Assembly (NCBI RefSeq): GCF_001447785.1
Contig: NW_015165932.1
Location: forward strand, 1-64,000
DNA from: Gekko japonicus
Taxonomy: Eukaryota
Direction of reading: 5' to 3'
DNA: 64,000 bases
Position 1 is the first letter of the stretch. Every line of letters begins with the position of its first letter. A program made the translations under genes and the position numbers. Shown one piece after another: positions 10,401-59,352 of the stretch. The notes under the pieces were generated by a model, which made no database searches, was not told the origin of the DNA, and saw nothing but the letters and a program-made list of their open reading frames with translations.

Positions 10401-13400
10401 TCCTGAGAGAACTCCGCACGGTAATGCCCCCCACAATCCGGTGAGGGAAAGGGTGGAGTAGAAGTAACAGGAGACGAGGCAGGCTTGGGAAGTTTGTGCG
10501 CTTGTGCCCTCGTCACGACCGCCCCTCCCAACTGGGCGGGTGTGAAGATCGAGTCAATGATGACTTCATGCAAGCTCTCGTGTTGCGGGAGGCGGGACAA
10601 GGCATCGGCCAGCGAGTTAGAAGACCCGGGGAAATGGTGCAGTGTGAACTGGAACTTTGAGAAAAAGTCTGCCCATCGCAATTGCTTGGCATTGAGAGAA
10701 CGGGGGGATTTTAGGGTCTCAAGGTTTTTATGATCAGTCCAGACCTCAAAAGGGACCCTAGCCCCCTCCAGCCAATGGCGCCATGTGGAAAGGGCCAGGC
10801 GAATCGCCGAAGCTTCTTTCTCCCACACACTCCAGTGGCGTTCAGCATCAGAAAACTTCTTGGACACAAATGCTAGCTGATGCAATTTCCCATCCACCCC
10901 CTCCTGTAGAATCGTTGCTCCCATAGCTACATCAGATGCGTCTGTTTGGACAATGAATTTTTTCTCCTCATCAGGGTGGGCCAAGATTGGTTCGGAGGTG
11001 AACATGCTTTTCAATTTATTAAACGTCGCATCACATTCTGGTGTCCATTTCAGCGGAGCCCCCGGTATCGTAGCGTCAAAACCCTTCCCCTTTGTTTTTA
11101 ACAAGTCAGTGAGGGGCAGGGCTATTTGGGCGAACCCCTTTATAAAAAATCTGTAAAAATTAGAGAATCCTAAAAATGCTTGGAGTTGTCGCCTGGTTTG
11201 GGGGGGTTCCCACTCTACCACATCCTTAATCTTCCCGGGATCCATTTCCAACCCTCCTCCCGAGATCCGGTAGCCCAAAAAGTCAATGTGTGGTTGTTGA
11301 AACTCACATTTAGGGAGCTTGGCAAACAATTTGTGCTTATGCAATGTTTTAAGGACTTTTCGGACCAATTTGACATGGGAGGGGAGGTCTTGAGAGTACA
11401 GTAAAATGTCATCCAAGTAAATAAGTACACCCTTAAACAAATACTCATGTAACACCTCATTAATCAAGTTCATGAAGACCCCAGGAGCCCCCTGAAGGCC
11501 GAAGGGCATTACTAAGTACTCGAATTGCCCCAGCGGGGTATTGAACGCAGTCTTTCCCTCATCCCCTTCCCTGATTCGCACCCGGAAGTAATCATCACGC
11601 AGATCGAGTTTGGGAAAAATCTTCCCTTTGGTAGCCTCCGCAACCAAGTCTTTAATCAAAGGGAGGGGGTACGCGTTAGTAGCGGAAATTGCGTTCAAAC
11701 CCCTGTAGTCGGTGCACAAACGGAGCCCCCCATCCTTCTTTTTCCTGAAGAGCACAGGGGCGGCAAAAGGAGAGGAGGCAGGGCGGATGAAACCCCGGGC
11801 AAGGTTCTTGTCAATGAACTTGCGGAGCTCCAGTTTTTCCGCGGGCCCCATGGCGTAGATCTTCCCCTTTGGGAGTTTGCAGCCCGGTAACAGCTCAATG
11901 CCACAACCTGATTTGCGATGGGGGGGCAGTTCGTCCGCCTCCTCTTCCCCAAAGACCTGTGCTAAGTCATGATACTTCGGGGGGAGGGACGCCAGTTCTT
12001 CTGCTGTTAAGGCAGCGCAAGGAAAGTCAAGTGCAGGCGGGGCCCCCCATGTTTCGTCCCAACGGTGCTCCTGGCATTTAGGGGAGACAAAGTCAATTCT
12101 GCCCTCCTCCCACAGTACATAGGGATCGTGAGAATACAACCATAGGGCTCCTAGAACCAGAGCAAACTGCGATTTGGGAGTTACCACAAAAGACCTTTCT
12201 TCCCAATGGGCACTCGCACCCACTCTCAATGGCATAGTCTCATGAGTACAAGGGTCCATGGGCGCCCCATCCATCTGTGTAAAGATAATCGGGGACTTGA
12301 GTCTCTTTATGCCTGCTTCCAAACTAGCCACCACTGTGGGGCTAATCAAGTCTCTCCCACACCCCGAATCGATCAGTGCTTTTACTCGCACATGCGTTCC
12401 TAGGTTGGGGTTCAAAAGCGAGACCGTGACAAAAAATAAAGAGGGGGGCTCTCTCACCACTATAGGCACCTCCTGGTCCAAAAGGTCCTGCCGTTGTGCG
12501 CCTTTCACAGCAGGACATTCTCGTTTCCCGTCGGCTCAGGCTCAGAGTCGTTTGAGTCCTCCTGGGGTTCCTCCGATGCGGCTTGCAAAGCCGTGGAGAA
12601 TTTGGGTTTGGCGCTCCCTCTTTTTTGTTGGGTAGCTGGTTTCCCTTTCGGCGTCGGTGGTGCTGTCTTGTCCTTCCCTTGTCCGGTTCCGCAGTTTGCC
12701 GCGAAATGGCCCCTTTCCCCGCATTTCAGGCAAAGACCCATCTTCATCCTCAGGTCTCTGGCCGCGTCCGACAGGTGCCCTGGTTTAGGCTTCGAAGTGG
12801 TGTGTGGGGTCCCTCTCCCCCCACTGGCTGCCAAGTCTAGCCGGATGGTCTGGAGGCGGCTCTCCGCGTTCTCCGCTTCTTGAGCCCATGCCATCAAAGA
12901 ATTCAGGTCTACCGAGCGTAACACAGTCTCTCTGATCTCCGCATTCAGACCCACTCTATACATTTCCACCAAAATTTTGTCAGGCCAATCGCGTAACTTA
13001 GCGGCATGATTATGGAACTCAGCAGTGTAGTCTTTCACCGAGCGTCGCCCTTGCTTGAACGTGCGTAGAAAAGCTTTAGCCCGGTTTTCTGCATTTACAT
13101 CCTCAAACTGGGTTCTTAGTGCCCACATGAAATCTCGTAAGTTAAACAGTTCAGGGCCCTGGTTAGAGTGTAATCCCACATACCAGGTCGCAGCTGCTCC
13201 TTTCAATCGGGAAGCAATCACGTCGATTTGACCGCTGTCATCGGGAAACAGGTGTCCATGCTGGGTTACGAATTTTTGGACCCTCACTGTAAAGAAAGCC
13301 AGTTCTTCCGGGTTCCCGTCAAATGTGGCATCCAGTAAGTCCTTTGGCCTCGCCCTTGGTTCCGCTGGTGGGAGTCCAGGTGCCCCGGGTCCTCCCGGAG

Positions 13401-16400
13401 GGGGAAGAACCGGTGCTACCGGCGGTCCCGGTTGAGCGGGGATCAGAGGGGGTGGCAGTCCGGGTGGCGGAGCTTGCCCTGGGATGGGGCCCTGCGATCC
13501 TGTATATTGGTAGTCATTCCTAACAAAATGTTGGATCCCCAGGCATTCGAAATAACTCCACGTTTGTTTCAAAGCAAGGTTTATTTCAAAGCGATGGTTC
13601 AAGCCGGAACAAGGACATTGTTAGGAATGACTACCAATATACAGGCAAAACATAATAAAGAAAATTGAACCAGTTTAGAACCAATGAGCCCAGTTCCCGC
13701 GGGCAGGAATGGGCATGGAAACTCGCACCCATTTCATGGGAACGTAACCGTTCACTAGAATCAATATAGGTTCAGTTCTCAGGGCAGATACCCATAACAA
13801 GCAGAGCGAAGCTGCAACTCCCACCAGCTGCACGACCTTGGCCAGTTCCGCAGAAAACAACTACACAGCATATGAACTCTACAATAACGAGGGGGGGGGG
13901 AAGGTACCCTAGGTGTGAAGCAGGTAATCCCAGATATAATGGCAGCTAGCTGACACCATGATGGAAAGGGTCAACCAGATCACTTGATCTATTCAGCACA
14001 CACCAAACAGCCTCAAACACTTGCCAAACTGGTTTGTATCAGGTTTTTTCAAAACTGCATATGTAAAGATGTTGCCAATTCAAACTGATTGCCAGCAATT
14101 AGCATTACTAAGGACTACTTAGACCAATACCAAAGGGTAAGATTTTATTGAAATGTGGTATTTATTCTTGACTGATTTATATAATTTGTGAGTTATCAAT
14201 TGTCTATTTAAACAATTGCCTGATCGATAGAGCAATTATTAAGCAAGGATGGGGCTCAGTAGAATTTAGTCATCCTGTGGGAGAATATACATACTACACA
14301 AAACACAATTGTGCAGTACTGCATGACTAGGAAGGAATACGGTGGAGGAATACAGTAAAGCAACCTGTTGAATGTCAGTTAACAGAACCCATCACTGAAA
14401 AATCAGGACCGTGTTTGCAACTGGTGAACAGGATGAACCAAACTATTCAAGTATCCTAATTTTTGTTGATTATATTTTCACTTTTTGGTTGGCACAATTC
14501 ACATGTAATATTTACTAAATGTGCTAATTCCAAAATAAGTTCCACGGTTCTGTTCCATAGAAACATGTTCCATCAGAGTGAATTTGCTTCTTCATAGGAG
14601 TGCTCAATGCATGACATACTGAATAGGACCATACACTGTACATAGTATTATAGCTTCAAAGGCCACAATTTAATATAATATGCAATATAACATCAGGATT
14701 TTGCCATGACAAAAAGCACAGTAGAACATCATGGTTTGAATGAGTCTCATCTCATTAACATAGCAGAATCTCTTTCTGGGTCTGACCAATGAATCACCTT
14801 TCTTAATACTGAGAAAGCCAATTAATATAATACAAAATGTGTTTGGACACTACCTGGTTAAACAAGTGGGGCCATACGATGGCGTCTTCACAAATGGTGA
14901 ATGTTTTGTCCGGTGGAGCTTTTGGCTCTATCCTTCCAACCTTGACTCTAAGAAAGGACCGGTTTGGGAATGTGAACCAGTTGATAATATCAAATCCAGA
15001 TAGCAACTCTCCATTTTGATCAAGGGAGATCTTTTCCTCCAGGCTGTTGTTAAAGGAGATGTTTCGCAGAATGTGATGGAGCTACATTGGGGAGGGGGCA
15101 ATCAGCTAACAAGAACATATAAAAAGATACACAAGAATCTTTCAGAGTTGATGGCTACGATGAATGGTCCTGCTTTTTAAAATAATCATTTGCAGGTGAG
15201 TAGTAGGGTTGCCAACTTCAGTTTGGGAGATTCCTGGAGATTTGGGGGAGTGATGAGGGCTGGGTTTGGGGAGGCAGAACTCAGCAGGATATAATGCCAT
15301 CAAGTCCACCCTCCAAAGCAGCCATTTTCTCCAAGGGAACTGCTTTCTGTTGTCTGGAGATCATTGGTAATTCTAGGAGATCTCCAGGCCCAAACCTAGA
15401 GGATGGTAACTCTAGCAGCAGCAATAGTATTGACCACTTTAATGTTTTGATCATTTTATACATTACTTTAGTCTTCATTGCCTTATTTTCATAACTGTAG
15501 TCCACCTTGAGTCTCAGAGAAAAAGGTGGATGATAAATTATGTCAATAAATAAATACAGTAGCATTAAGCAGCCTGCTAGCACAGCCTAGCTTGATCTCA
15601 TCAGAGCTTGGAAGCTAAGTAGGGTCTGCCATGTTTAGTACTTGGATGGGAGACCCCCAAGGAAGAAGGGAGTTGCTGTGCGAACCACCTCTGCTCATCT
15701 CTTCTCTTGAAACCCCTGTAGTCCTAGGGCCCTGATGCATTGGTTGTGACTTGATGGCACACAATTAGTAGTAGTAGTAGTAGTAGTAGAAAGCAGCATT
15801 AGGAATTGAACAAGAAATGCTAGTGTGTTTACTCGAAAGGAAGATGACTTAACTTCTTTTTTCTAAAAAGGAATCATCATCTGCTTGGGTATACAGATCT
15901 GTTGAGGGGTGCTTTGCTGAGTTCTTGAAGTCTTGATGTGAGAGGTGACTGCCCATGTGGAGATTATTGGAGGAAGTGCAAAAATTCATTCACCACCTCA
16001 AAGCAGTGGAAGCCATGGCAAATACTCCCTTTCAGGCTCCTTTAAGTGTGCAAGGGAGAGAGGTGGAGTCGGTGGGCTCACTGGCTTTGAAAACTTACTT
16101 GGCAAATGGTAAGAAGTGGTAGGAACAGTTGGGGTGGATTTGCTTCTCTATGGAGAGAGAAACCCCAAAAGCCTGTGGGTTTTACAGCAGTTTAGTGAAG
16201 CATTAGCTATAGTTACTATTAGTGTGTGGATATTTTAGATGGGGAAGGCTGTGGCAAGTAGTTAATTTTAGTCATCCCTGCTGGATTGGCAATATAACAC
16301 AGACTGCTGAAAACTGACTTCCTACCATGGAGAGCATTGTGAATTGTGAGTTTAACAGTGTATTTCTAAGTAGAGTTACACCCTTCTAAGCCCACTAATG

Positions 16401-19400: not shown

Positions 19401-22400
19401 AAGATAGGCATTGTTTGCACTGAATCGGCTGTTAAAAATGTGAAAGCCTAGGGTGACATTGTGTAAAATCCATGGATTTTCGTTGATCTCCTTGATGGCA
19501 AATTCCAAAGCCAGAATGTGCTGGTACATCTGAGGTATGGATCTGCAAGGAAAGTTAGATTTTGCATCTCAGGGAATGCCCTTTGAAGTATGGATTTTGC
19601 CACATGTTATCTCTTTATTTAATTTTTTTGTATTAAATTAGATTCTATGGAACCAGTCCAAGAACCGTCGAAGCAACATTGTCAAATATACCTGGGCTTC
19701 TCATAATAGAAGCCCAACAGAATCACGAGCTTGCTGTTCAAGAACATCATGATCTACAGTGTTCCTTTGCTTTGCCACATCTTCCCTTGCACTAATTGTC
19801 AGAGATGTTCAGCAACTCACCAGCTAAATTCACATCCACCTCATGGGTCATCATGAGCTGATTTTGCACTGAGCTGTTTGGCTGCATCTGAATGAGTTTA
19901 ACTATTTACATTAAGAACTAGCATGGTCAAGTAGTTAAAGGTGTTGGACTCAGATCTGGGAGACCCAGGTTCGAATCCCCACTTTGCCATGGTAGCTTAC
20001 AAGGTGATGTTGAGCCAGTCACACAATCTCAGCCTAACTACCTGACAGGACAGTTGTGAAGATAAAATGGGAAGAGGGGGGTCCCTACTGGGGAGGAAAG
20101 TGGCATATAAATGAAGCCAATAAATAAATACATTTATATTATTCAAGACTGAATATTTGCAGCTACTGTCCCACTCCCTCACACCCATCTGCTGATGTTG
20201 CTACCTCCAATTAATTAAAGGCTCCTAGATAAAATAAACATATTTGTTGGAGGTTTTTTTTAACATGATACTTACTTCTTAAGTGTTGCTATGTGCCTTC
20301 ACTGGCTCATGGACCTGGGTAAACTTCTGATCACTTACCCGGTATATGCTTGCACCAAATACAGGCAATGTATTCGTTGCAGGGTTATTTAAAGGATGCA
20401 CCTGACTTCACAGATGCAAAGAGGCGATGAACTGTTGAGTGATCCTGTGCTTAACAATTTGTCCTTTCATCAGTTAAAGTGACAGAAAACATGAAGCAGA
20501 AACTGAAGATTTTGTCTCTGTTGTCTAGGACTAAGGGACATTCACTCAGCCCTACTCACAGGTCAAAATATGTAAGAAACCAAAGATATCAATGACTGTA
20601 GAAATTGTAAATAGAACTGTAAAAGCTTGGAATATGTACCACCCAGCTACCTATTCTCATCTTAGGCAGAATATCCAATATGTATTCAGATTGCCAAAAT
20701 CATTCTCCCCAGATGAACTAATCAGTGCAGAAACAACTCATATCCAGAGCTATTTTTGGGCAGGAACGCACAGGAACGGAGTTCTGGCTGGCTCCTGAGT
20801 TGGCCACACCCAGCAGGAACTCATTAGCATAATAGGCCACACCCAACAGCAGAAACTCATTAGGATTGGCTACATTAGAGGTGTGTGGCCTAACATGCAA
20901 AGGAGTCCCTGCTACAAAACAAGGCCTTGGGTTTTGACAAAAAACAAGGTAAACAGAATAAGAAGCAAAAGGTGGGTGTGGCTGAATGACTACACTTCTG
21001 GCAACACGGGGCTGCTGCCTACTACACTAATGAGCTGTGGTGTCAGGGTGTGGCCTAATATGCTAATGAGTTCCTGCTGGGCTTTTTCTACAAAAAAAGC
21101 CCTGCTCATCTCTACAAATCTAGTGCTGTCCAAATTCTTGAGATTATTGATTATTGATTTTTCCATATATTGGCAACAGTCCTCAAGCTTTTTCAAGTGG
21201 GACCCATTTCTAAACTTACTCTAATTTTTGGAAAGCCAGTGTCAAAGTCATTTATTTTTCTTTCAACTACTGTCAAAGTAGTTTATTTAAAATGTATTGT
21301 TTTATAGCCTGCTTTCCTTTCTAAGACACAAAGTGGGTCGCACAACATAAACCATGTAATCAGACAACATAATCCAGTCTACAATGCAACGGGACTGGGA
21401 TGACCAAATTAGAAAAACAATGCAAAAGAAAAAGGCATCCTACACGATGTATCATGAACAATGGAGAAAAAGAAATTAAGAAGGGAGAAGACAATGCAAT
21501 AGGAACAGGGTAAAACATACAATAAACAGCGGAGCAGACAACAATCCTGTTCATTTTAGAAAGACACATCCTTCTAAACCATCCCATTATATTATTATAG
21601 TCCCTATTCCCTTTACAAAAATGTCCTCCTGAACAATCCTGTTTTATTCAATCTGCAGAATCATGTACTTTCCTTCTCCTTGATGAATATGTAGCATTTC
21701 TGAGGATCAGGCTGCTTTTCACAAGCCTTCTTCACAAGCAAACATGTTTACCCTTGAGCCTCCCAGTACCGCCTCTCCTAGCTTTCCCTATTTCTCTTCT
21801 GCCTTGCAGTAAATCTCCAAGAGCATCATGACCTCCTTTTGGATCCCAACCTGTAGTTTGAGAACCACTGTATCAATAGAAAAAGACTTAACCAGTTGCT
21901 TCATTATTGAACATGCCAAGGCACAAAATTTGGCCACCTGCAAAATGGTTGCGTTAGAACCATCTGAAAGAAGGAGGGAAATTTTAAAAAATGCATCAGG
22001 TCTGCCAGGAAAGTTAGATAAGACTGGAGTTATATATGTAGAGACTGAATGATCCTATGCACCGGACAATACAGTAACATATCATCAATTTTTTCAACCA
22101 TATCCAATGGACAGGGGCAAACATGCTGACATTAAGAGATACATGCATGTCTAACCCTTCCAAAAGAGGTGATGGTCATATGGAAGGAGGCAAGATGGCG
22201 ATAAATAAACAACATTATCCAGCTGCTCTACCGTTCTAGTTTTTTAATTGTGTTTTAATGGACCAGGTTATTTTATGCACTGGACTATGTAGCTTATTTA
22301 GGCTAATCACACCAATTGTAACCTTTATACATCAAACTGGAAGTCAGACTTACAACCACTATATTAAAAGAAGCCTATTGTATTATATAAAGAAATAGAT

Positions 22401-22957
22401 TATGATAGCACACCCCAAAGCTGGTGAACAAATGAAAACTTCAATAATCTACTAATGTAAAGGTTGCATTACTTCTCCCATATAGCTATGACTTTTTCTT
22501 TAAAAAAATTAATCTACATAAATATTAACATCTTGGAAATAAAGGATGCTGTATCACACTTCTATTGTTGTCAGCTACCAATTTTTTTGCAAATATCCTA
22601 ATGGTAGCTTAGAAAGAGGTATCTCATATCTCTGGAAAGCAAGCCCAAGGAGTGATGCTACTTGTTCTTCACTTTGCTGACCTTAATGCAACTGCTTAGG
22701 ACCCAGTGACATGATAGAAAAAAATATCCAAACCCTTACATGGGATCATCAAAGAGCTTATGAAAAGGGTAGTGTTCGAACGTTATTGGATCTGAGAACA
22801 TGTAGATCTGAGAAATAATGCCACCAATGATCAGGTCTCCTGGCTGATAATACTTATGACGAATTGGGAGAGGGTTCCTGGTGCTGCACATAATAACGGA
22901 AATCTTGCACACTGTCTGAGGCAACATCACCAGCACCACTACCATATATACCACCAT
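6575..22957 (-). CDS. Vmn2r: V2R-1: vomeronasal type-2 receptor (family-level call), 6 exons, ~873 aa, apparently intact
   Basis: Exons 22957-22740, 19542-19251, 17970-17116, 15081-14854, 8134-8008, 7476-6575; all GT-AG, phases compatible, total 2622 nt; signal peptide, Venus flytrap, NCD3G, 7tm_3 ([35 protein letters not shown]). Confidence 0.93.
8008..8134 (-). CDS. Vmn2r: V2R-1 exon 5 (NCD3G, 127 bp)
   Basis: [11 protein letters not shown]...[18 protein letters not shown]; CAG acceptor, GTAAT donor. Confidence 0.92.
8544..8969 (-). repeat. Gypsy 3' LTR (426 bp)
   Basis: About 7 substitutions and 1 poly-G indel relative to 13529-13955, counted by eye. Confidence 0.95.
8993..12529 (-). CDS. 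pol: Gypsy Pol (protease, RT, RNase H, integrase, chromodomain), expressed by -1 frameshift
   Basis: LIDSG, YLDD, TDASD, HHCC zinc finger, [37 protein letters not shown] chromodomain; 1171 aa open frame. Confidence 0.95.
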   Translation of the reverse strand, partial: GKRECPAVKGAQRQDLLDQEVPIVVREPPSLFFVTVSLLNPNLGTHVRVKALIDSGCGRDLISPTVVASLEAGIKRLKSPIIFTQMDGAPMDPCTHETMPLRVGASAHWEERSFVVTPKSQFALVLGALWLYSHDPYVLWEEGRIDFVSPKCQEHRWDETWGAPPALDFPCAALTAEELASLPPKYHDLAQVFGEEEADELPPHRKSGCGIELLPGCKLPKGKIYAMGPAEKLELRKFIDKNLARGFIRPASSPFAAPVLFRKKKDGGLRLCTDYRGLNAISATNAYPLPLIKDLVAEATKGKIFPKLDLRDDYFRVRIREGDEGKTAFNTPLGQFEYLVMPFGLQGAPGVFMNLINEVLHEYLFKGVLIYLDDILLYSQDLPSHVKLVRKVLKTLHKHKLFAKLPKCEFQQPHIDFLGYRISGGGLEMDPGKIKDVVEWEPPQTRRQLQAFLGFSNFYRFFIKGFAQIALPLTDLLKTKGKGFDATIPGAPLKWTPECDATFNKLKSMFTSEPILAHPDEEKKFIVQTDASDVAMGATILQEGVDGKLHQLAFVSKKFSDAERHWSVWEKEASAIRLALSTWRHWLEGARVPFEVWTDHKNLETLKSPRSLNAKQLRWADFFSKFQFTLHHFPGSSNSLADALSRLPQHESLHEVIIDSIFTPAQLGGAVVTRAQAHKLPKPASSPVTSTPPFPSPDCGGHYRAEFSQEDEDVIATLQGCVRSPEGLVYSDNKLYMPVSLRREVLHLAHGSKLAGHWSFVKSLQLLRRQFWWPHMRKDLLDFVRTCQTCALSKPRGGKTPGLLHPLPTPSRPWEVISMDFITDLPLSKGKTVIWVVVDLLSKQSHFIPLPSLPTAQKLAKLFLHHVKSPHVKSAKVISDRGTQFVSKFWRELMKLMGVEQGLSSAYHPETDGQTERVNQTLEQYLRCFSNYQQNDWCDLLPLAEYCYNNTFHNSINMSPFKAALGYDSSPLPFLGGPTPLQHTDAGLWCKSLQDAWPLLCSTLDDAKRAYKHQADRGRVEGWDLKPGDFVYVSMKNIKLLQPCRKLSWKFIGPFKVRRIINDVAVDVELPKNLKSLHSVFHMSLLKKDTGHGKWRPARDSPPPIILDGDEHFEIADILDSRIKRGKLWYLIQWVDFGPQHQEWVEEGDIRAPYMLQRFHKKFPGKPGGLPPNPGGGG
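12478..12529 (-). promoter_or_regulatory. -1 programmed ribosomal frameshift signal (G GGA AAC + stem/pseudoknot)
   Basis: Heptamer at 12529-12523 in the gag frame, 6-nt spacer, GTCCTGCTGT/ACGGCAGGAC stem; pol is in the -1 frame. Confidence 0.8.
12505..13498 (-). CDS. gag: Gypsy Gag (Pro-rich N-terminus, retrotransposon capsid, CCHC zinc knuckle); start codon unresolved
   Basis: [44 protein letters not shown]. Confidence 0.88.
13529..13955 (-). repeat. Gypsy 5' LTR (427 bp)
   Basis: Direct repeat of 8544-8969; sense AATAAA near 13585. Confidence 0.95.
14854..15081 (-). CDS. Vmn2r: V2R-1 exon 4 (228 bp)
   Basis: [13 protein letters not shown]...GFDIINW.TFPN...IVWPHLFNQ; TAG acceptor, GTAGTG donor. 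Confidence 0.92.
15204..15413. mobile_element. hAT-like MITE (TAGGGTTGCCA-type ends); related degenerate copies at ~30101-30440 and ~31065-31260
   Basis: Ends TAGGGTTGCCA...TGGTAACTCTA; shared internal GCCATTTTCTCCA(A/G)GGGAACTG motif. Confidence 0.55.
15588..15789 (+). mobile_element. 5S rRNA-derived SINE with (TAG)n tail
   Basis: GATCTCATCAGAGCTTGGAAGCTAAGTAGGGTC..TTAGTACTTGGATGGGAGACC matches the 5S core; non-5S body; microsatellite tail. Confidence 0.7.
16566..16950 (+). mobile_element. L2-like LINE 3' end
   Basis: Degenerate AFSALAP.WWN.LP..IRALRDL..F.RAC.T.LF.QAF C-terminus, then 3' UTR ending CCACCTTGAGCC...GGGATACAAAT and A-rich tail. Confidence 0.65.
17116..17970 (-). CDS. Vmn2r: V2R-1 exon 3 (855 bp, Venus flytrap)
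   Basis: [64 protein letters not shown]; CATAG acceptor, GTAATC donor. Confidence 0.94.
18014..18686 (+). mobile_element. CR1 LINE 3' fragment (ORF2 C-terminus + part of 3' UTR)
   Basis: [60 protein letters not shown]; nearly identical to 35706-36224. Confidence 0.93.
18687..18795 (-). mobile_element. 5S-derived SINE 5' part
   Basis: Reverse complement TAGCCTGATCTCATCAGATCTCAGACGCTAAGCAG...TTTGGATGGGAGACCACC. Confidence 0.65.
19251..19542 (-). CDS. Vmn2r: V2R-1 exon 2 (292 bp)
   Basis: [41 protein letters not shown]; GCAG acceptor, GTAAGA donor. Confidence 0.94.
19915..20130 (+). mobile_element. tRNA-derived SINE, near full length
   Basis: A box-like TGGTCAAGTAGTTAA, B box GGTTCGAATCCC, MIR-like core, AATAAATAAA tail. 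Confidence 0.7.
20744..21103. mobile_element. Two related short hAT-like MITE pieces in inverted orientation
   Basis: GCAGGAACTCATTAGCATA.TAGGCCACACCC occurs on both strands; end ...CTACAAAAAAAGCCCTG. Confidence 0.5.
22740..22957 (-). CDS. Vmn2r: V2R-1 exon 1 (signal peptide + N-terminus)
   Basis: [31 protein letters not shown]..; donor AT|GTAAGG. Confidence 0.9.
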
Positions 22958-23339
22958 GCTGCAAGGAAAGCTTCTTTCTAGATGTTGATAGTCCTGTTCC
23001 TACATCGATTTTGGAGGTTTTTGTGTAGAAGCAGGACTTGAACAGCCACTCAGTCTGATGATGTGAAGGCAAAATTGTTCTATGTGACACATTAGAGGAT
23101 CGGTCTGATGGGTCTTTTTTCCCCTCAAGTGCCGACTCTGAAAGGCACAGAAGAGACAAGTAATATCCTTTTGTCTTAGTTCACAATTTTGCTAGCTATT
23201 AGTGGGACACCTTAGGGACCTATTAAAGAGGTTATCATAGTCATCAATAATTTGACAATAACAGGGGAGCTAATGACTTGTTCTGAGTTGTAAGTTCTCT
23301 GTGCCACTGCAGAAGAAAACATGTAATTTGATAATTACA

Positions 23340-23885
23340 GGGTGCATTCAGATGGGCAGCTAATCCCGCCAGTATGCCAGCTCAAATTTGATCCCGAACT
23401 TTTTAATCTGTCCTCGCATGACCAGAAATCCCCTGGGGGAATCGTCTTACCACGCGCTGCTTCCGCTGTGGATTGTCTAGACGGCGTCCACTGAATGAGG
23501 CATGCATGGGGTGGCTTTTAAAAAAAAAAGTTTGCGCATGTGCATAGGCGTGATATCATGGCCTTGTTTATCCACGCATGCTCAAAATCAAGATTTTTAA
23601 ACAATGGCACCCGTTTGGGATAATCTGATGTCAGACCATCCTGGACAGGCACCATTTTTTAATTGCACGGTGGAACGATCAGACAGGGGAAAGTCCATGA
23701 CTGGCCCATTGGAACCAAAAACTCCAAATTTTAACTAGTACCTTTTTAGTAAGGCACTAAAGCACGGCAAAACGCGATGCTCATGGAAGATGGACATTTC
23801 CCAGATGTTAATGTCTGGACATGACATATAAATCCATGAGGCACTTGTACCTCACGTGGATCTAAAGAGCCGTCTGATCGGACTC
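23340..23885. mobile_element. PIF/Harbinger-like MITE in V2R-1 promoter
   Basis: Imperfect TIRs GGGTGCATTCAGATGG / CCGTCTGATCGGACTC, 3-bp TSD ACA; removing it restores a motif conserved in the other V2R promoters. Confidence 0.75.
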
Positions 23886-24049
23886 ACAGAGGAGATAATG
23901 ACCTATCTTCAGTTACAGTTTGTTGTGATGTTGCAGAAGAAATCACATCTCAGTCATGTCAATCACATCTCAACAGAAATCTTTGCCAGTCTGCAGAAGG
24001 AGTGCAAGAGATGTGCAGGGCTGTAATGACCCATGACAATGGCCACAGT

Positions 24050-24180
24050 CACACACATCAAATAATTCACTTGCAATCCACTTTCAATGCACTTTCCAAT
24101 GGATTTTGCAAGTTCACACAGTAAAAATCCAGTTGCAAAGTGCACTGAAATGGATTAAAAGTGGATTATTTACTGTGTGA
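24050..24180. repeat. Palindromic MITE-like element
   Basis: CACAC..AATAATTCACTTGCAATCCACTTTCAATGCACTTT... mirrored by ...AAAGTGCACTGAAATGGATTAAAAGTGGATTATTTACTGTGTG. Confidence 0.55.
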
Positions 24181-24649
24181 CTGCAACCAATGAAAGATTG
24201 CTGGAAAACTGCAGCCTGAAGGGTGGGGGGAGTTGTAATAAAAGAATATACATATTGCAAAATCCATATCTGTAGAGGTGGCAGAAATGTCCAAGTTCAA
24301 ATCTGTGCCCATCTTTCAAAACTGAAATGTTTTGAAATCCCAGAAGAAAGTTCCACTATTCATGGAATGGCACTTCATGATCTAATCCATGCCTAGCCAA
24401 AGAGAAACTCCCCAAATAAATTCAGAACAAATTAAAACAAGCCCATAAAGCATAAAGGCAGAGAGAACTTTATTCAGCAAAAAAACCTGTTGTCCAGTGC
24501 TTTGGTTAGGATGCTGGACTAGAATTGATAAGACCAGAGTTCCAATCCCCACTCTACCATGAATCATTCAGGGGGACCCTGGGCCAGTCTCATCTTTCAG
24601 CCTAAGCTACACTTCAAGATTGTTGTGCACAGAAAATTTCTGGGGGGTC

Positions 24650-24860
24650 ATAAGAACATAGGGACATAAGAGAAGCCAATGTTGGATCAGGCCAAAGGCC
24701 CATCCAGTCCAACACTCTGTGTCACACAGTGGTCAAAAATACCAGGTGCCATCAGGAGGTCCACCAGTGGGGCCAGGACATTAGAAGCCCTCCCACTGTT
24801 GCCCCCCCAAGGACCAAGAATACAGAGCATCACTTGCCCCAGACTGAAAGTTCCTATCTA
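24650..24860 (-). mobile_element. CR1 3' UTR and tail
   Basis: CATAAGAACATA tail; its right end is the reverse complement of the CR1 3' UTR seen at 18648-18686. Confidence 0.8.
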
Positions 24861-25178
24861 TAAAGGTAAAGGTAAAGGTTCCCTTACTCGAATGCCAGTC
24901 AAATCCGACTCTAGGGTTGCGGTGCACATCTCCGTTTCCAAGCCGAAGACCCAGCGCTGTCCAAAGACGTTTCTGTGGTCATGTGGCCGGCATGACTAAA
25001 CACCAAGGCGCACGGAACGCTGCGGTGGCTCAAGTGGTTAAGACGCTGAACTGCAGGCTGTGAAAGGTCAGTAGTTCAGCAGTTCGAGACCTGAGTTGCC
25101 GCATGACGGAGTGAGCTCCCGTCTCTAGTTCCAGCTCCTGCCAACCTAGCAGTTTGCAAGCAAGAAATTGCAAGTAGA
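24861..25178 (-). mobile_element. Sauria SINE with inverted 5' half
   Basis: (AAAGGT)n tail and 3' half on minus strand (24861-25021); tRNA-like head and body on plus strand (25022-25178). Confidence 0.8.
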
Positions 25179-25325
25179 TCACTTTAGGAAGTGTTTGATC
25201 ACTTCCTAAGGATTATTATGGGATGTTGCTACTGTAGTGCATAGAAGTTCTGGTGCAATCTGAAAATCATGATTGCTGCCACATTTGGACACAAAAAATT
25301 GTACACAGACCTCAAAGAAGTGTAG

Positions 25326-25440
25326 TGTGATTATCTCCCTTGTAATTATCAAAATCACTATAATTGATCTACACCGTTCAAACTCCAGTGGCTCTCCACA
25401 ATACATTAAAAATAAACATCTGAAATGTGTGTTTATAAAA
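25326..25440 (+). promoter_or_regulatory. Putative V2R-2 core promoter (conserved ATTATC-N9-ATTATC element, TAATTG, TATA-like TTTATAAAA)
   Basis: Motif at 25330-25353 is shared with all other V2R upstream regions; TATA-like box at 25432-25440. Confidence 0.6.
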
Positions 25441-25665
25441 ACCCCACTGGATTCTTCATACCTAAGACGAGGGGCTGAAGACATACATGTTCTTATCCTT
25501 AATCAATATTCCTCAATTGGCACCCAGACAAATAGCCTGGTGAAGGTCAGGCTCAGAATTGCATTGGCAATGCCAGCTTCAATCCAAGCCACCTTCTAGA
25601 AGTCCTGGAGGAAAAAAGGAAACCCGGAGACTCTGCGTCTTGGGTGAAGCTTTGCCACCATCAAG

Positions 25666-25874
25666 ATGGAATCTTCATTGCTGCTCCTGCCCTATCACGC
25701 GGCATACAAAATACATAGTTTGAAGTGTGTTCAGACAGAACCCCTTCAGATACCCCATGAGTGGTATCAGTCAGGTGAACTACTCATTGGTGCGGTTGTA
25801 ACTCATATTGGTGGTAATTCCCCCAAAATTTCCTTTGAGAAACACCCTTCTCAGGAATCTATTAACTTGCTATA
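25666..25874 (+). CDS. Vmn2r: V2R-2 exon 1
   Basis: [23 protein letters not shown]..; TA|GTAAGG donor. Confidence 0.88.
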
Positions 25875-28800
25875 GTAAGGAATGTTTTCTCTCTGTCAAA
25901 ATGATTGTTGGAAATTCATTATTTTTTTGCTTGCATAATTAAGTTGAAAGGACAAGGGTATATAGTGTTTTTTTAACATGTGTATGTGCAAAAGAATTAG
26001 AATGTTATAGAATTAGTAGTATAATGGAATAGCTCAGCAGGTCACTTTTGTAGGGGAATAGGAGTGCACTGTTTTATGATCACCTAGTTTGTTCTTCTAC
26101 ATTGTACCTCACTTCATGCATTATGGTATATCCTCCCTTTGTGTTTCAATTGTTTTCCAATTTTGTAATCCTGATGGTTGTGTCTTGATGAGAAAACGGG
26201 GCTACATTATGAAGTAGATAACAATAGATAGATGATAGACGGACGGCCAGACTGATGATAGATGGGGTGTGTGTGTGTGTAATTCTGAGAAAACAAAGAG
26301 ATAGTATAAGGAAAATGTAGAAAGGAAAATAAGGGTTATCTAACATAATTTTATACATACACAAATATGTGCGTGTGTGTGTAACAAAGTATAAAAGACA
26401 GAAACATTTTCAATTACATTGAAAAAATTTGGGGACTTTGTCTATAATGTACAATGATATTTACTTCTAATGGGATACATTTATTATGATTTTAACCATA
26501 GTCCCATCCCAACAAGCCCCAACAGCTCTTTACTTATGTGTTTAGAGCTAGTTCTCTCAGAACATAATAGGCAGAGACTGAATGGTTAATTCAAACAGCA
26601 AGAGAGATAATGGGGCTGCCTTGTAAACTTTCCCTGGATATTAGAAATGTATCAGATATGTTACTATTTACTATGATTCTACCCACAGTCCCATCCCAAC
26701 ATGTCTCAATAGATCTTTTCTTATGCATATATGGCTAGTGTCTTACCAAAATGATACAATGATTTCATATCCTGTATAATTCTCCTGTCAAACAAAAGAC
26801 AATGATATTTGCAGTTTTGTCCCCAAGTTCTACCAGCACATCCTGGCCTTGGTGTTTGCTGTCTATGAGATTAATAATAATCCCAAAATCTTGCCAAATC
26901 TCACGTTGGGGTTCCACATCCTTGACAACTACTCTAAAGCAAAGATGGCTTATCGTGCTACACTGGACCTACTTTTCAAATCACATAGGTTTGTTCCCAA
27001 CTATCAATGTGGCTCCAAGAAAAAACTAATAGGAGTTACCGGGGGACTTGATTTGGATACTTCCACACACATGGCAGACGTCTTGGGTCTTTACAAGATT
27101 CCACAGGTAAGATCAGTGCATGGTGATGATTGGGGTTTCTCAAATGTCAACTGTCATATATTAGGGGCTGGCTTCTTCTGCATGAAAAGCTGTCCCAGCC
27201 AAGATCTGTGTGTCACAGGGGTGATCTCCCTGAGGTACACAGATCCCAGTTCTGGCTCCTTCTGCAGCACAGTTTAAATATAGTTTCAAACAGCTCCATG
27301 GGCTTACGATTAAAATGAGTGTAGAGCTTTCGTCTTGTACTGAAACGACATGATTGATTCCTCGAATAAGAATAGTGATAAGTAAAGCAGTCTCAGATGA
27401 CAGAAGATATCGGCAGTCTATTATTTTCTGAGGAGGAGGAAGATTACCTGATGAAGAAAAATGAAATGTGAACAGCACTCCAGAAATCACATTGTTATTA
27501 AGAGTGTTTTGTCACCTCGATGGATTCGGACTGTATTCTTAAGGTCTCAGACTGTGTGCAAAGGTCTCACCCAGGATTCTTGTCTGTCCATGAATAACCT
27601 GGAAACCCCTGACAGTGCTACAGCCAGGTAACTGGTCAGGGAGCAGCCTTTCTCACCACTTTTCAGATACTCTTTGGTAAGGTGACCAAGGAAGGGGGTG
27701 TAGAGGATCATCTGGCTCATAGAACTGATTAGTGTCTAAAGCTCCTTTTACTTTTTGTCAAGAGGAGGCATTCCTTGTCCATCACCTCCACATGTTGCTG
27801 GTCATCTATAGCTTTTCAATGGTGAAATTCCAGGACCAAGGAACTCCCCTCCCTTCTGACTGGTCAGCTAAGAGAAGGTGGTTTGATGACATGTCAGAGG
27901 ATGCCCCCCTAAATTTTTACCATTAAGTACACACTTGTACTTTTTAGGACTACCCACTTAATTCCTTATCAGTCCTAACAATAGGCCTACTTAATGCCAA
28001 GCTACTCAAAGCCAGTAACGTGTAAAATGTTAAAACTTTCACAAGTTATATAGAAATGGGCAAAAAGTACAACTGTTCACCCCCTAAACAACCAGATAAT
28101 CCTATCCTACTGAACAAGAGAAGTAGGAAGAAAGTGCCAAACAGAAGTGTAGGTCAGGCCTCTTAGAAGTTATATGCCAATCCTGATCAGCATAGCTTCT
28201 GACCAAGTCCAGCCATCCAAGTCAATATGTGCCTTACCTAAAAGAGTTAGTAGACCATGGTATCCCCAATACCAAGAAAGTTGGGAACTGGAAATAAAAT
28301 GATTGTTCTCAGATACTTTTCTCACCTCTCTCTCCAATTTATGTCTTTTAGATTTCATATGGATCATTTGAATCAACAACAAATTACAAAACCTATTTCC
28401 CTTCCTTTTACCGCATGGTGCCCAATGAAGCCCTTCAGTATGTGGGAATTGTTCAGTTGCTTCTGCATTTCAGATGGAAATGGGTTGGGCTCATCACTAC
28501 AGATGGCCAAGCTGGGGAACGTTTCTTGCAGGTGTTGGAGCCGATGCTTTCTAAGAATGGGATCTGTTCAGCCTTCACAGAAAGAGCCCCAACAAAAATC
28601 CATGCAGACAAAGCAACTGAAATCCTTCAAAACTTTTACACGAATAGTTCAAGTTTCCTAGAAAGTGAAGGCAATGCAATTATTGTACATGGAGAAACAT
28701 CCAATGTTATATGGGTGGCAACCGCTATATGGGTAAGATCTCTAGCTGATTTGGGGTATACAGAGAGAAGCTCTGCAGGAAAAGTGTGGATAACAACTGC

Positions 28801-34800: not shown

Positions 34801-37800
34801 GAGGTGACGAGAGAGGAGGTCCTAAAACTGATAGACAACTTAAAAACTGAAAAATCACCAGGCCCAGATGGCATACATCCGAGAGTTCTGAAAGAACTCA
34901 AATGTGAACTTGTAGATCTCCTGACAAAGATATGTAATCTTTCCTTAAAATCTGCCTCCATTCCTGAGGATTGGAAGGTAGCTAATGTCACTCCCATCTT
35001 TAAAAAGGGTTCCAGAGGAGATCCGGGAAATTACAGGCCAGTCAGTCTGACGTCGATACCGGGTAAATTGGTGGAAACCATTATTAAGGAAAGAATTAGT
35101 AGGCACATAGATGAACAAAACCTATTGAGGCAGACTCAGCACGGTTTCTGTAAGGGAAGATCTTGTCTCACTAACCTGTTAGTGTTCTTTGAGGGGGTGA
35201 ACAAACATGTGGACAAGGGGGATCCAATAGATATTATTTACCTTGACTTCCAGAAAGCTTTTGATAAAGTTCCTCATCAAAGGCTCCTAAGTAAGCTCAA
35301 AAATCATGGGATAGAAGGACAAGTCCTTTTATGGATCAAAAACTGGCTAGTTCATAGAAAACAGAGAGTGAGTGTAGGTGGGCAATTTTCTCAGTGGAGG
35401 GTGGTAAGCAGTGGGGTACCGCAGGGATCAGTACTTGGTCCACTGCTTTTTAACTTGTTCATTAATGATTTGGAGATGGGAGTAAGCAGTGAAGTGGCTA
35501 AATTTGCGGATGATACAAAGTTGTTCAGGGTGGTGAAAACCAGTGAGGATTGTGAGGCACTCCAAGGGGATCTGTCAAGGATGGGCGAGTGGGCGTCAAC
35601 ATGGCAAATGGGGTTCAATGTGGCCAAGTGCAAGGTGATGCACATTGGAGCCAAAAATCCTAAATATAAATACACATTGATGGGGTCTGAACTGGCAGAG
35701 ACTGAGCAAGAGAGAGATCTTGGAGTTGTAGTGGATAACTCACTGAAAATGTCGAGACAGTGTGTGACTGCAATAAAGAAGGCCAATGCTATGCTGGGGA
35801 TTATTAGGAAGGGTATTGAAAACAGATCAGCCAATATAATAATGCCCCTATATAAATCAATGGTGAGACCTCATTTGGAATACTGTGTGCAGTTCTGGGC
35901 ACCACACCTTAAAAAGGATATTATAGCTTTGGAAAAAGTGCAGAAAAGGGCAACTCGAATGATAAAAGGGTTGGAACACTTTCCCTATGAGGAAAGGTTA
36001 AAGCGCTTAGGGCTCTTTAGCTTGGAGAAAAGACGACTGAGGGGTGACATGATCGAGGTTTATAAGATTATGCATGGGAAAGAGCAGGTAAAGAAAGAGG
36101 TACTTTTCTCCCTTTCTCACAATACAAGAACTCGTGGGCACTCCATGAAACTGCAGAGCGGTCGGGTTAGAACGGATAAAAGGAAGTACTTCTTCACCCA
36201 AAGAGTGATTAACACATGGAATTCTCAGAACTATGGCTTGCCCAAGGTCATCCAGCCAGGGGCAAGTGGAGGAGTGGGGAATCAAACCCTGTTCTCCCAG
36301 ATTAGAGTCCGCACACTTAACCACTACACCAAACTGGCTCTCACACCAAGCTGGCAGGGCCACCCCTCAAGTCTATGACAGCACCCCAGCAGGACACCAC
36401 AAAGAAGGGAGGGGGGTGCAATTCTCATAGTACCCCCTCCGGGGATGCAATACACAGCCAGTACTTGGGGGACAGCTGAAAAGGCAGACATCCCCAGACT
36501 TTTGATGACGTACCCCCATGGTAGCTGGGAAGGTATAATAAATGTGCCCTCATCAATGGGGGTGTATTATTACTCTGAAACTGGGTTTGGAGCGCACCCA
36601 TCCATTGTGGTAAATTCTTCTACTCCAAGGATAAATGGAAACATATGCGAAGCTGGCAGGGCCACCCCTCAAGTCTAAAATGGCAGGTTATGAAGGACAG
36701 GTGAAAAAGTAGACCAGGCATCCCTAAACTTTCAATAAAATAACCCCATGGCTGCTTGGCAAGCACCCCAGCCAGACACCACAGGGAAAGGAAGCATGTC
36801 AACAATGCTCCCAGGCCCCCTAAGGCCCAAATACATAGATCCTCTGGTCACAGCCCACCCCTAGGTGAAATTTCTGGTTCTTCACCATTAGCGGAACACA
36901 GAGAAGAATCATAGAATCATAGAGTTGGAAGGGGCCTCCAGGCAGGCACCAGCCAGAAGTGAGCTCTCCAGGTTTGCACAAATATACATTCCATCATTCA
37001 TTTAATTTAGTTAGCACCCCTGTCACCCCCAAAAATCCTGGCTGCAGCCCTGACTTTCACCCTTATGGTGATCACAAATCGTAGGGGCTGGGGGTATATA
37101 AATGTGGGTCCTGTGAGGAGGCACCCAGTAGCGAAGCTGCAGTGTTCACCATGAGCACAGAGACTGTGGCTCAGAGTCCTAAGTCTGCTCCACACCCAAA
37201 ACCCAACAGCAGAGAGCCAATCACAAGCAGGAGGGGTGGGTGTATAGAAATGTGGGTCCTCTGGGGAGGCATCCAGTAGCGAAGCCCCAGTTCTCATCAT
37301 GAGCACAGAGACTGTGTGGCTCAGATCCCCAAGTCCACCAACCTACACCCAAACCCCAGCACCAGACAGCATAACACAAGCAAGAGGCATGCAGGTATAT
37401 CAATGTGGGTCTTCTGGGGAGGCACCCAGTTGCATTGCAGTTTTGTAAACAGTTTGGTTGATTGGTGCCAGTCTGTCTCCATTCATGAACCAACACAAAT
37501 CACCATGAACAGCGCTAAACGTTTGTGAGCCAGTTCATACCCATCTCAATTCATATCCCTGCTTAGAAACTTAAAATAGGCATCCTTCCTTTTCCAGACA
37601 TGGAACACTGTGTTGCCTGCTCAGAAGATCAATATCCAAGCAGTAGTCAAGATCAATGCATCCCCAAGATCCAAAATTTCCTCTCCTTGGCAGAACCTCT
37701 GGGCATTCTGTTAGCCTGCTTGGCTCTCTTCTTTTTGCTGATCACAGCTCTGATGCTCGGAATTTTCATTAAGCACCAGAACACTCCCATAGTCAAAGCC

Positions 37801-38586
37801 AACAATCGCAGCCTCACCTACATTCTTCTCACCTCGCTCCTTCTCTGCTTCAGTTGCTCTCTGCTATTCATTGGACAGCCAAATGAGTTGACCTGTCTGC
37901 TCCGACAAACATTGTTTGGAATCATCTTCTCAGTTGCTGTTTCTTCTGTCTTGGCAAAAACTGTGACAGTAGTTGTGGCTTTCATGGCCTCCAAACCAGG
38001 AAGTATTGTCAGGAAATGGATGGGGAAAAGAATGATGTATTCAATTGTCATTTCCTGTTCTCTTGTTCAAGTAGGTATTTGTAGTCTTTGGTTGAGTATT
38101 TCTCCCCCATTCCCAGATCTGGACATGGACTCATCGATGGAAAACATCATAGTGAAATGCAATGAAGGGTCAGTCACCATGTTTTACTGTGTCTTGGGCT
38201 ACATGGGCTTTCTGGCCACCATCAGCTTCACTGTGGCTTTCCTAGCCAGGAAGCTGCCTGACACTTTCAATGAAGCCAAGTTCATCACCTTCAGCATGTT
38301 AATCTTTTGCAGTGTCTGGCTGTCCTTTGTCCCGAGCTACCTGAGCACCAGAGGAAAAGACATGGTGGCCATGGAGATCTTCTCCATCTTGGCCTCCAGT
38401 GCTAGCTTACTGTGCTGTATCTTTTCTCCCAAATGCTATATCATAATACTGAGGCCTGAGTTGAACAGCAGAGAGCAGCTGGTAAGAAAAAAAAAGATCT
38501 TTAATACTCTATCCACCTGCTCTCTTGGTACTGAAGTACGTTGTGAATGTCCATGGCAGTGCAACCATGCAAAATACAACACTTAG
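25666..38586 (+). CDS. Vmn2r: V2R-2: vomeronasal type-2 receptor (family-level call), 6 exons, ~897 aa, open frame with extended C-tail
   Basis: Exons 25666-25874, 26815-27106, 28352-29200, 29321-29548, 32034-32160, 37598-38586; GT-AG, phase-compatible, total 2694 nt. Confidence 0.92.
26815..27106 (+). CDS. Vmn2r: V2R-2 exon 2
   Basis: [19 protein letters not shown], 292 bp. Confidence 0.93.
28352..29200 (+). CDS. Vmn2r: V2R-2 exon 3
   Basis: [26 protein letters not shown], 849 bp. Confidence 0.93.
29321..29548 (+). CDS. Vmn2r: V2R-2 exon 4
   Basis: [22 protein letters not shown], 228 bp. Confidence 0.9.
29696..29898. other. Assembly gap (N run); further gaps at 38917-39133, 41878-42012, 59811-59852
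   Basis: Runs of n. Confidence 1.
30535..30955. mobile_element. PIF/Harbinger-like MITE
   Basis: TIRs GGTCCCGGTCACACGGG / CCAGTGTGGCAGGGGCC, 3-bp TSD AGT; same family as 60810-61252 in opposite orientation. Confidence 0.8.
31917..31980. repeat. 3x ~21-bp tandem repeat GAGATCTCAGATATCATATT
   Basis: Single copy at the paralogous position in V2R-3 (~52378). Confidence 0.85.
32034..32160 (+). CDS. Vmn2r: V2R-2 exon 5
   Basis: [29 protein letters not shown], 127 bp. Confidence 0.92.
32440..32790. repeat. Degenerate ~33-bp minisatellite inside a repeat-rich, hAT-like insertion (~32300-37550) in V2R-2 intron 5
   Basis: Repeated ATGTAGACATGGTGGCTC(G/A)AAGCCC; the insertion is absent from the 588-bp paralogous intron 5 of V2R-3. 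Confidence 0.7.
32958..33309. repeat. Perfect 176-bp tandem duplication
   Basis: 32958-33133 repeated at 33134-33309, both ending in (GAA)n. Confidence 0.9.
33314..36224 (+). mobile_element. CR1 LINE with uninterrupted ORF2 (APE endonuclease + RT), truncated at both ends
   Basis: [57 protein letters not shown]; ends at ...TWNS with no 3' UTR. Confidence 0.95.
36225..36342 (-). mobile_element. tRNA-derived SINE 5' part (its (GAA)n tail lies at 33292-33313, on the other side of the CR1)
   Basis: Reverse complement GAGAGCCAGTTTGGTGTAGTGGTTAAGTGTGCGGACTCTAATCTGGGAGAACAGGGTTTGATTCCCC. Confidence 0.8.
37598..38586 (+). CDS. Vmn2r: V2R-2 exon 6 (7TM)
   Basis: TTCCAG|AC acceptor; [35 protein letters not shown]. 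Confidence 0.94.
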
Positions 38587-40969: not shown

Positions 40970-41086
40970 TGTGATTATCCCCCCAGTAATTATCAAAATG
41001 ACTATAATTGATCTACCCGGTCAAAACTCCAATGTATCTCCACAACACATCAAAAATGTGCATCTGAAATGTGTGGTTATAAAAAT
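40970..41086 (+). promoter_or_regulatory. Putative V2R-3 core promoter
   Basis: ATTATCCCCCCAGTAATTATCAAA (40974-40997), TAATTG, TATA-like TTATAAAAA (~41078). Confidence 0.6.
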
Positions 41087-53500: not shown

Positions 53501-54088
53501 ATCATCTTCTCAGTTGCTGTTTCTTCTGTCTTGGCAAAAACTGTGACAGTAGTTGTGGCTTTCATGGCCTCCAAACCAGGAAGTATTGTCAGGAAATGGA
53601 TGGGGAAAAGAATGATGTATTCAATTGTCATTTCCTGCTCCCTTGTTCAAGTAGGTATTTGTAGTCTTTGGTTGAGTATTTCTCCCCCATTCCCAGATCT
53701 GGACATGGACTCAGTGATGGAAAACATCATAGTGAAATGCAATGAAGGGTCAGTCACCATGTTTTACTGTGTCTTGGGCTACATGGGCTTTCTGGCCACC
53801 ATCAGCTTCACTGTGGCTTTCCTAGCCAGGAAGCTGCCTGACACTTTCAATGAAGCCAAGTTCATCACCTTCAGCATGTTAATCTTTTGCAGTGTCTGGC
53901 TGTCCTTTGTCCCGAGCTACCTGAGCACCAGAGGAAAAGACATGGTGGCCATGGAGATCTTCTCCATCTTGGCCTCCAGTGCTAGCTTACTGTGCTGTAT
54001 CTTTTCTCCCAAATGCTATATCATAATACTGAGGCCTGAGTTGAACAGCAGAGAGCAGCTGGTAAGAAAAAAGCATTATGATATTTAA
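41340..54088 (+). CDS. Vmn2r: V2R-3: vomeronasal type-2 receptor (family-level call), 6 exons, ~871 aa, apparently intact
   Basis: Exons 41340-41548, 42666-42957, 48016-48864, 48999-49226, 52463-52589, 53178-54088; GT-AG, phase-compatible, total 2616 nt. Confidence 0.93.
42666..42957 (+). CDS. Vmn2r: V2R-3 exon 2
   Basis: 292 bp, [13 protein letters not shown]. Confidence 0.93.
43102..43918. repeat. ~0.4-kb imperfect tandem duplication in V2R-3 intron 2
   Basis: 43102-43494 repeated at 43495-43918 with several SNPs and two micro-duplications. Confidence 0.88.
44290..46123 (-). mobile_element. ORF1-only L1-derived element (HAL1-like), full length, decayed
   Basis: 5' end GAGATTTCCGGTTTTGGCG; ORF1 coiled coil + RRM/CTD fragments (45167-45406, 44913-45107); 3' AATAAA/A-rich end; TSD TGTTCTCTTTT (44279-44289, 46124-46134); no ORF2. 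Confidence 0.78.
47228..47807 (-). mobile_element. RTE-BovB LINE 3' fragment
   Basis: [55 protein letters not shown]; (CAC)n tail; absent at the paralogous V2R-2 site. Confidence 0.92.
48016..48864 (+). CDS. Vmn2r: V2R-3 exon 3
   Basis: 849 bp, ISYGSF..MPWK|GTACTC. Confidence 0.93.
48999..49226 (+). CDS. Vmn2r: V2R-3 exon 4
   Basis: 228 bp, [16 protein letters not shown].. Confidence 0.9.
49609..51270 (-). mobile_element. Second ORF1-only L1-derived element (HAL1-like), decayed
   Basis: CpG-rich 5' end with CAATGGCGG; ORF1 fragments 50377-50901, 50202-50414, 49864-50061; 3' end TTTTTTATTGCTTTT (+ strand) shared with the 44290 element; TSD not resolved. Confidence 0.68.
51380..51750 (-). 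mobile_element. LINE ORF2 linker fragment (L2/CR1 group), old
   Basis: [24 protein letters not shown], similar to the LINE part at 58116-58345. Confidence 0.45.
52463..52589 (+). CDS. Vmn2r: V2R-3 exon 5
   Basis: 127 bp, [23 protein letters not shown]. Confidence 0.9.
53178..54088 (+). CDS. Vmn2r: V2R-3 exon 6 (7TM)
   Basis: TTTCAG|AC acceptor; ends VRKKHYDI*. Confidence 0.95.
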
Positions 54089-59236: not shown

Positions 59237-59352
59237 TGTGATTATCTCCCCTGTAATGATCAAAATCACTGTAATTGATCTGCCCTGTCAGAGCTGCAAT
59301 GGCTCTCCAGGATACATAAAAAATGAGCATCTGAAATGTGTAGTTATAAAAA
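59237..59352 (+). promoter_or_regulatory. Putative V2R-4 core promoter
   Basis: ATTATCTCCCCTGTAATGATCAAA (59241-59264), TAATTG, TTATAAAAA (~59344). Confidence 0.6.

Follow-up and report, generated by a model that had tools for sequence, protein, structure and literature searches.

The 64-kb window, by which we mean the whole stretch of Gekko japonicus DNA that was analysed (64,000 nucleotides), contains four class C receptor genes. All nine exon frames tested match PF01094 (ANF_receptor) or PF00003 (7tm_3), the best protein matches of these host genes are V2Rs, and the translation of V2R-2 exon 3 agrees at 100% identity with a V2R 26-like protein annotated in Gekko japonicus. V2R-1 comprises six exons with an open frame of about 870 codons. 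As the frame is open, we rejected the possibility that it is a pseudogene, and apparent premature stops near the exon 1 ends were likewise dismissed because they span the splice donor. V2R-1 and V2R-2 are transcribed divergently with 2.7 kb between their start codons (22957–25666). Repeats make up about half of this gap and the two promoters were therefore formerly much closer to each other. The positions of all features upstream of the four genes are collected in Table 1.

The locus shows several further peculiarities. Intron 4 of V2R-1 carries an LTR retrotransposon (8544–13955) with a long pol frame and 427-bp LTRs that are 98% identical. The transmembrane exons of V2R-2 and V2R-3 (37550–38562 and 53130–54158) differ at 2 of 123 four-fold degenerate sites, compared to 9–15% of such sites in exons 2 and 3, which suggests recent gene conversion between the transmembrane exons. 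Around exon 2 of V2R-4 (61547–63171) we noticed partial tandem duplications, including a second copy of the 5’ part of the exon; these may be real or an artefact of assembly. A 231-nt contig of low depth from run X3, which we guess to be an RNA sample, corresponds to positions 25595–25824 with 0 differences and lies over V2R-2 exon 1. Run X5 yielded 0 reads for V2R exons. Neither result enters our argument on expression or on the start site.

Table 1. Coordinates of receptor genes, element copies and associated features in the window.
Feature	Position	Strand	Remarks
V2R-1 first coding exon	22740–22957	-	ATG 22957; head-to-head with V2R-2
V2R-1 copy B	23251–23277	-	uninterrupted, degenerate, 317 bp from ATG; overlooked in the preliminary description
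V2R-1 copy A, right half	23327–23339	-	including duplicated target bases; 23336–23327 without them
Inserted 546-bp dispersed repeat	23340–23885	.	3-bp target duplication (4 bp also readable)
V2R-1 copy A, left half	23886–23902	-	
V2R-1 copy A, CACAA block	23914–23927	-	
V2R-2 CACAA..AA(C/T)TGTA block	25290–25303	+	within a block of ~75–100 bp also recognisable in V2R-1
V2R-2 27-bp core (GTNATTATC-type repeats)	25327–25353	+	
Third homeodomain-type site TAATTG	25361–25366	+	in V2R-2/3/4; V2R-1 without it at the equivalent place
V2R-2 TATAAAA box	25434–25440	+	predicted start 25458–25465
V2R-2 first coding exon	25666–25874	+	ATG 25666
V2R-3 core copy	40971–40997	+	TATA 41078–41084
V2R-3	ATG 41340	+	
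V2R-4 core copy	59238–59264	+	TATA 59345–59351
V2R-4	ATG 59597	+	

The element upstream of V2R-2, V2R-3 and V2R-4

A preliminary description of this DNA had proposed a 24-bp promoter signature, and the quoted 24-mers are indeed found at 25330–25353, 40974–40997 and 59241–59264. Scanning with the 24-mer and allowing up to 3 mismatches gave 4 matches, where 0.08 are expected. The element reaches 3 bp further in 5’ direction than had been quoted, resulting in a 27-bp core with the structure of a 9-6-9 direct repeat of 15-bp period: GTNATTATC, six bases, GTAATKATC and finally AAA. Each of the 9-bp repeats holds a TAAT core and a TCCC-type half site lies between them. In V2R-4 the second repeat reads TAATGA, by which the GATA sequence is lost and the homeodomain site is kept. 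A tandem-repeat origin of the motif was considered and rejected, as TRF reported no array at this site.

The element had been placed 330–400 bp before the start codon and close to a TATA-like box in all four genes. This applies to V2R-2, V2R-3 and V2R-4, in which the distance to the ATG is 336, 366 and 356 bp, respectively, and a TATAAAA box is located 104 bp past the motif start, a spacing that is fixed inside a block conserved to 92–96%. It does not apply to V2R-1 in its native state: the left half of copy A lies 942 bp from the ATG, and we found no match to TATA[AT]A[AT] in the 1073 bp upstream of this gene. The CACAA block reported further upstream is present at 25290, 40932 and 59197 as well as at 23927 on the minus strand.

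Two other sites coincide with the two best conserved windows of the three promoters (22 of 24 columns each). The sequence TGGTGCAAT at 25251–25259 (+) has equivalents in V2R-3 and V2R-4 and was not seen in V2R-1; we take it to be one base off an ATF/C-EBP composite site, and ATF5 has been linked to vomeronasal neurons. The other window holds a CATCTG E-box at 25417–25422 (+), presumably of the NeuroD/Neurog type, which is invariant in the three genes and lies 17 bp before the TATA box.

If the element were part of a common repeat, high copy numbers would be expected at its position. We found a raw-read depth of 0 in the bin containing the motif (25274–25379), while neighboring repeats reach depths of hundreds to tens of thousands at 80% likeness. 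Contig depth in the motif bin was 218, of which 204 came from three long contigs fitting V2R-2, V2R-3 and V2R-4. With no raw reads and about three contigs, the motif does not belong to a common repeat; an ancient, decayed repeat may nevertheless be its origin. Further paralogues were not found at 80% likeness or above in runs X1, X6, X3 and X5 (4 of 24 runs). The one exact metagenome match obtained by pattern scan is located inside a bacterial-type coding frame and was regarded as chance.

V2R-2, V2R-3 and V2R-4 can be aligned across approximately 1 kb comprising promoter, exon 1 and intron 1 at 73–77% identity, and between 25192 and 25666 69% of the columns are invariant. The expectation that the motif would be more conserved than its flanks in a paralogue alignment turned out to be wrong: 20 of its 24 columns are invariant in the three genes, a value equalled or exceeded by 76 of 452 windows. 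Four-fold sites of exons 2 and 3 differ by only 8–15% among the three genes. Because conservation of the flank reaches the same level, we discarded conservation within the trio as evidence for function. Being recent paralogues with the whole 5’ flank alike, the three genes represent one lineage and count as one observation. The motif had been described as common to all four receptors, but the number of independent lineages is two rather than four.

Split and intact copies upstream of V2R-1

For V2R-1 the preliminary description had given a reconstructed copy of the element. This sequence does not exist natively, as an insert of 546 bp interrupts copy A; the rejoining itself is sound. The same 3 bases are found at both ends of the insert. 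In addition, V2R-1 contains a 76-bp tandem duplication that is collinear only when the insert is removed, which independently supports the rejoining. Copy B lies within the second unit of this duplication.

Mean raw genomic read depth of the insert was approximately 366x in comparison to 0–10x in unique bins. Assuming a genome size of 2.5 Gb for the single-copy depth baseline, the repeat therefore occurs in several hundred copies. Because its other copies differ by 12–18%, the insertion is old. PIF/Harbinger MITEs are marked by a 3-bp target duplication, short terminal inverted repeats and many copies, and the insert is a candidate Harbinger-type MITE: duplication and copy number fit, although the terminal arms are imperfect (11 of 16 positions match) and a 4-bp duplication is equally readable. 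No empty insertion site was present among the 15 joints listed in the repeat-swamped tables (901 more joints). Another dispersed repeat is located at 24037–24213, just upstream of V2R-1 copy A; its inverted arms are strong and its read depth exceeds 1000x.

Conservation between two receptor lineages

The age of the two lineages was assessed with a FastTree phylogeny of 137 exon-3 segments, 134 of them (at least 220 aa) from the 120 matches listed, which are biased towards V2R-2, and 3 from the window. V2R-1 pairs with a receptor of the snake Candoia (support 0.96), and both fall inside a clade that also holds genes of monitors, horned lizards and lacertids (0.95). V2R-2 first groups with 55 non-gecko receptors (0.87) and only then meets V2R-1, from which it follows that, wherever the root is placed, the split of the two lineages predates the divergence of geckos. 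On the basis of this tree the lineages of V2R-1 and V2R-2/3/4 are older than the separation of geckos from the other squamates.

We compared the motif across this split. Rejoined copy A matches V2R-2, V2R-3 and V2R-4 at 24, 23 and 24 of 27 positions, and copy B at 22, 21 and 22. The top local alignment of each V2R-2/3/4 promoter is the one with rejoined copy A (scores of 39, 34 and 39, respectively), and in each case 0 of 300 shuffles reached the score. The same test with the native V2R-1 region was marginal (scores reached by 5, 19 and 9 of 300 shuffles). A profile built only from the upstream DNA of V2R-2, V2R-3 and V2R-4 matches native copy B with E=3e-4 in the 19-kb V2R-1 region and with E=0.001 in the whole window; none of ten control non-coding profiles reached E<0.05 in the 19-kb region (best 0.051). 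With a 27-bp weight matrix derived from the three genes, rejoined copy A scored 34.5 and copy B 27.9, in comparison to 12.3 for the best unrelated site among roughly 126,000 positions. In all 13 comparisons of introns and downstream regions between the lineages the best ungapped 27-mers matched at no more than 21 of 27 positions. The motif is therefore the best-conserved non-coding 27-mer between the two lineages, while copy B alone (21–22 of 27) is barely above the intron maximum.

That no other non-coding DNA of V2R-1 aligns, as had been claimed, was too strong a statement. Intron 1 can be aligned weakly with that of V2R-2 and that of V2R-3, in both cases better than any of 100 shuffles, but not with that of V2R-4. 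This weak homology is collinear and extends over 21353–21643 (-) in V2R-1 and 25960–26200 (+) in V2R-2, with the corresponding part of V2R-3; it may be the remnant of an old repeat or a second conserved intronic element. The stretch between motif and ATG of V2R-1 is 60–67% identical to that of the trio when gaps are introduced.

The similarity between the lineages could have arisen with no special function, either because a slow-changing stretch of promoter was inherited and noticed as the best window, or through old gene conversion between V2R-1 and V2R-2. We consider this unlikely. In favor of it, weak homology remains in intron 1 and over the full length from motif to ATG, V2R-1 tolerates a split copy A, and at a neutral identity as high as 60–65% a window with 24 of 27 matches would arise with P=0.11–0.36. 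However, 73 of 136 four-fold sites differ between V2R-1 and V2R-2, which suggests a neutral identity of only about 46% between the lineages, and at 45–55% the probability of a best window with at least 24 of 27 matches drops to P=0.0003–0.023. Copy A moreover resembles V2R-2 and V2R-4 (24/27) no less than it resembles its tandem partner copy B (23/27), and both tandem copies have retained the same 18 of 27 columns that are invariant across all five copies, although the difference between core and flank in the comparison of A and B (23/27 versus 33/48) is not significant (Fisher p=0.17). Gene conversion has been proposed for mouse V1R promoters (PMC1955453), and in its favor the V2R-1 and V2R-2 promoters are inverted neighbors approximately 2 kb apart; against it, copy A fits the distant V2R-4 equally well as the adjacent V2R-2. 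Conservation of the motif thus probably exceeds plain inheritance.

Possible role and related receptor promoters

We favor the reading, with a probability of roughly 60%, that the motif is a conserved block of two ancient lineages and serves as a proximal promoter element with homeodomain factors on its two TAAT cores. The earlier proposal of a conserved proximal cis-element thereby remains the best reading, as the motif is the sole part of a 500-bp V2R-2/3/4 promoter profile that matches V2R-1 significantly, but it is backed by two lineages instead of four. That it takes part in vomeronasal expression or in the choice of receptors, as had also been suggested, is a proposal by analogy with odorant receptors. 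All five copies keep the first TAAT core and four of the five keep the second, and each of the four upstream regions holds TAATTA, TAATGA or TAATTG at or beside the motif. Against this, TAAT occurs frequently in AT-rich DNA. The consensus of homeodomain sites is TAATT/GA/G. This consensus agrees with the matrix table in PMC3247239.

According to our model, factors of the Lhx2/Dlx/Emx class would bind the two TAAT cores, which are separated by one and a half helical turns, and an O/E (Ebf) protein might join them at the half site in the center. In vomeronasal neurons the bound factors would open the promoter and determine the frequency of choice, as homeodomain sites do at mouse odorant-receptor promoters, and transcription would start 25–30 bp past the TATA box, about 130 bp downstream of the motif. 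In V2R-1, which has an open frame despite lacking a perfect native motif copy and a TATA match, copy B lies at the corresponding distance and has probably performed the function ever since the transposon split copy A. AP-2e peaks from the vomeronasal tissue of mouse show an enrichment of Ebf, Dlx and Lhx motifs (PMC9525060), making such factors plausible in this tissue. At its center the motif is similar to the left O/E half site. A full O/E (Ebf) site of the TCCCNNGGGA type was not found in any copy; the best matches inside the motif have 2 mismatches in V2R-2, V2R-4 and copy B and more in V2R-3.

The element might also be functional and be read by a GATA-type or another non-homeodomain factor, e.g. 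a multi-finger protein on the 9-6-9 repeat, which we regard as quite improbable. GATA and homeodomain cores had both been described and both are present, but of the two readings that of GATA is the weaker one. V2R-2 and rejoined copy A have retained both WGATAR sites, and all five copies also agree in bases outside the TAAT cores (GT, CC and TCAAA), which goes beyond the needs of bare homeodomain sites. Yet a tandem arrangement of GATA sites is not maintained: each of them survives in 3 of 5 copies, 2 of 5 copies have the two together, V2R-3 has lost the W of the first site, and the substitutions in V2R-4 and copy B each break one GATA site and keep TAAT. The first site of copy B furthermore agrees by eye with 7 of the 8 bases in the core of an Lhx2 gel-shift probe (PMC5608512). 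Even less probable, in our view, is a functional element outside the proximal promoter, located in a 5’ UTR intron or acting as an enhancer shared by V2R-1 and V2R-2, with transcription starting elsewhere. Such an arrangement would be compatible with a start site that is predicted rather than mapped, with the acceptor-like pyrimidine tracts before the ATG of V2R-1, V2R-3 and V2R-4 and with the missing TATA match of V2R-1. On the other hand, V2R-3 and V2R-4 are not members of divergent pairs and still keep the motif at its fixed distance from the TATA box in the conserved block, and in mouse nanoCAGE tag clusters are located near the 5’ ends of V2R genes (PMC3927265).

Squamates depend on large V2R repertoires. 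If the favored function as a homeodomain-bound promoter element is true, the 27-bp element with its fixed spacing would be a first testable cis-element for V2R genes. V2R-1, in which one copy is split and the other degenerate, offers a natural experiment. A more far-reaching reading, which we put forward tentatively and hold to be rather doubtful, is that of a V2R-specific signature: a double-homeodomain repeat of 15-bp period around an Ebf half site that squamate V2R subfamilies have retained from before the divergence of geckos, that sets the frequency with which each V2R is chosen and that has been tuned by tandem duplication and transposon insertion. According to a preprint of December 2025, little is known about how V2Rs are switched on and chosen (PMC12710957). 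The literature searched, largely open-access papers, describes no V2R promoter motif in the text available (including PMC12400810, PMC4154679 and PMC12294341).

Homeodomain and O/E sites are established motifs of odorant-receptor promoters (PMC3247239, PMC5318403). The gecko element is similar to mouse odorant-receptor promoters in having TAAT-core sites proximally upstream in a large chemoreceptor family and a TATA box in a subset of genes; it differs in that two cores are arranged in a fixed 15-bp direct repeat without a full O/E palindrome, and in that the host genes are class C receptors with six exons. The Lhx2/Ebf composite of the Greek Islands (PMC5608512) likewise has a homeodomain site abutting a TCCC/TCTCC pyrimidine run at fixed spacing, and its Ebf part tolerates degeneracy (Monahan et al., PMC5608512). 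In the gecko element a second TAAT repeat takes the place of the Ebf purine half, and in comparison to the Sfaktiria probe of that study (one probe, by eye) the homeodomain site has the opposite orientation and lies nearer by 1 bp; as judged by eye from this single probe, the element lacks a full Ebf site placed directly beside an Lhx2 site with the spacing stereotyped for the composite. In addition the composite marks distal enhancers, not promoters (PMC5608512).

Within the vomeronasal system, mouse V1R promoters show a comparable pattern of broad homology within subfamilies, short motifs across subfamilies and O/E-like motifs (PMC1955453, PMC3247230). The gecko element is found in V2Rs and crosses a split older than geckos. 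The V2R-derived promoter of mouse Fpr-rs1 indicates that 5’ sequence of a V2R is enough for basal vomeronasal expression; the passages on this promoter in the review PMC7873101 define no motif. If the more tentative V2R-specific signature were true, it would represent a vomeronasal counterpart to the homeodomain/O/E code of odorant receptors.
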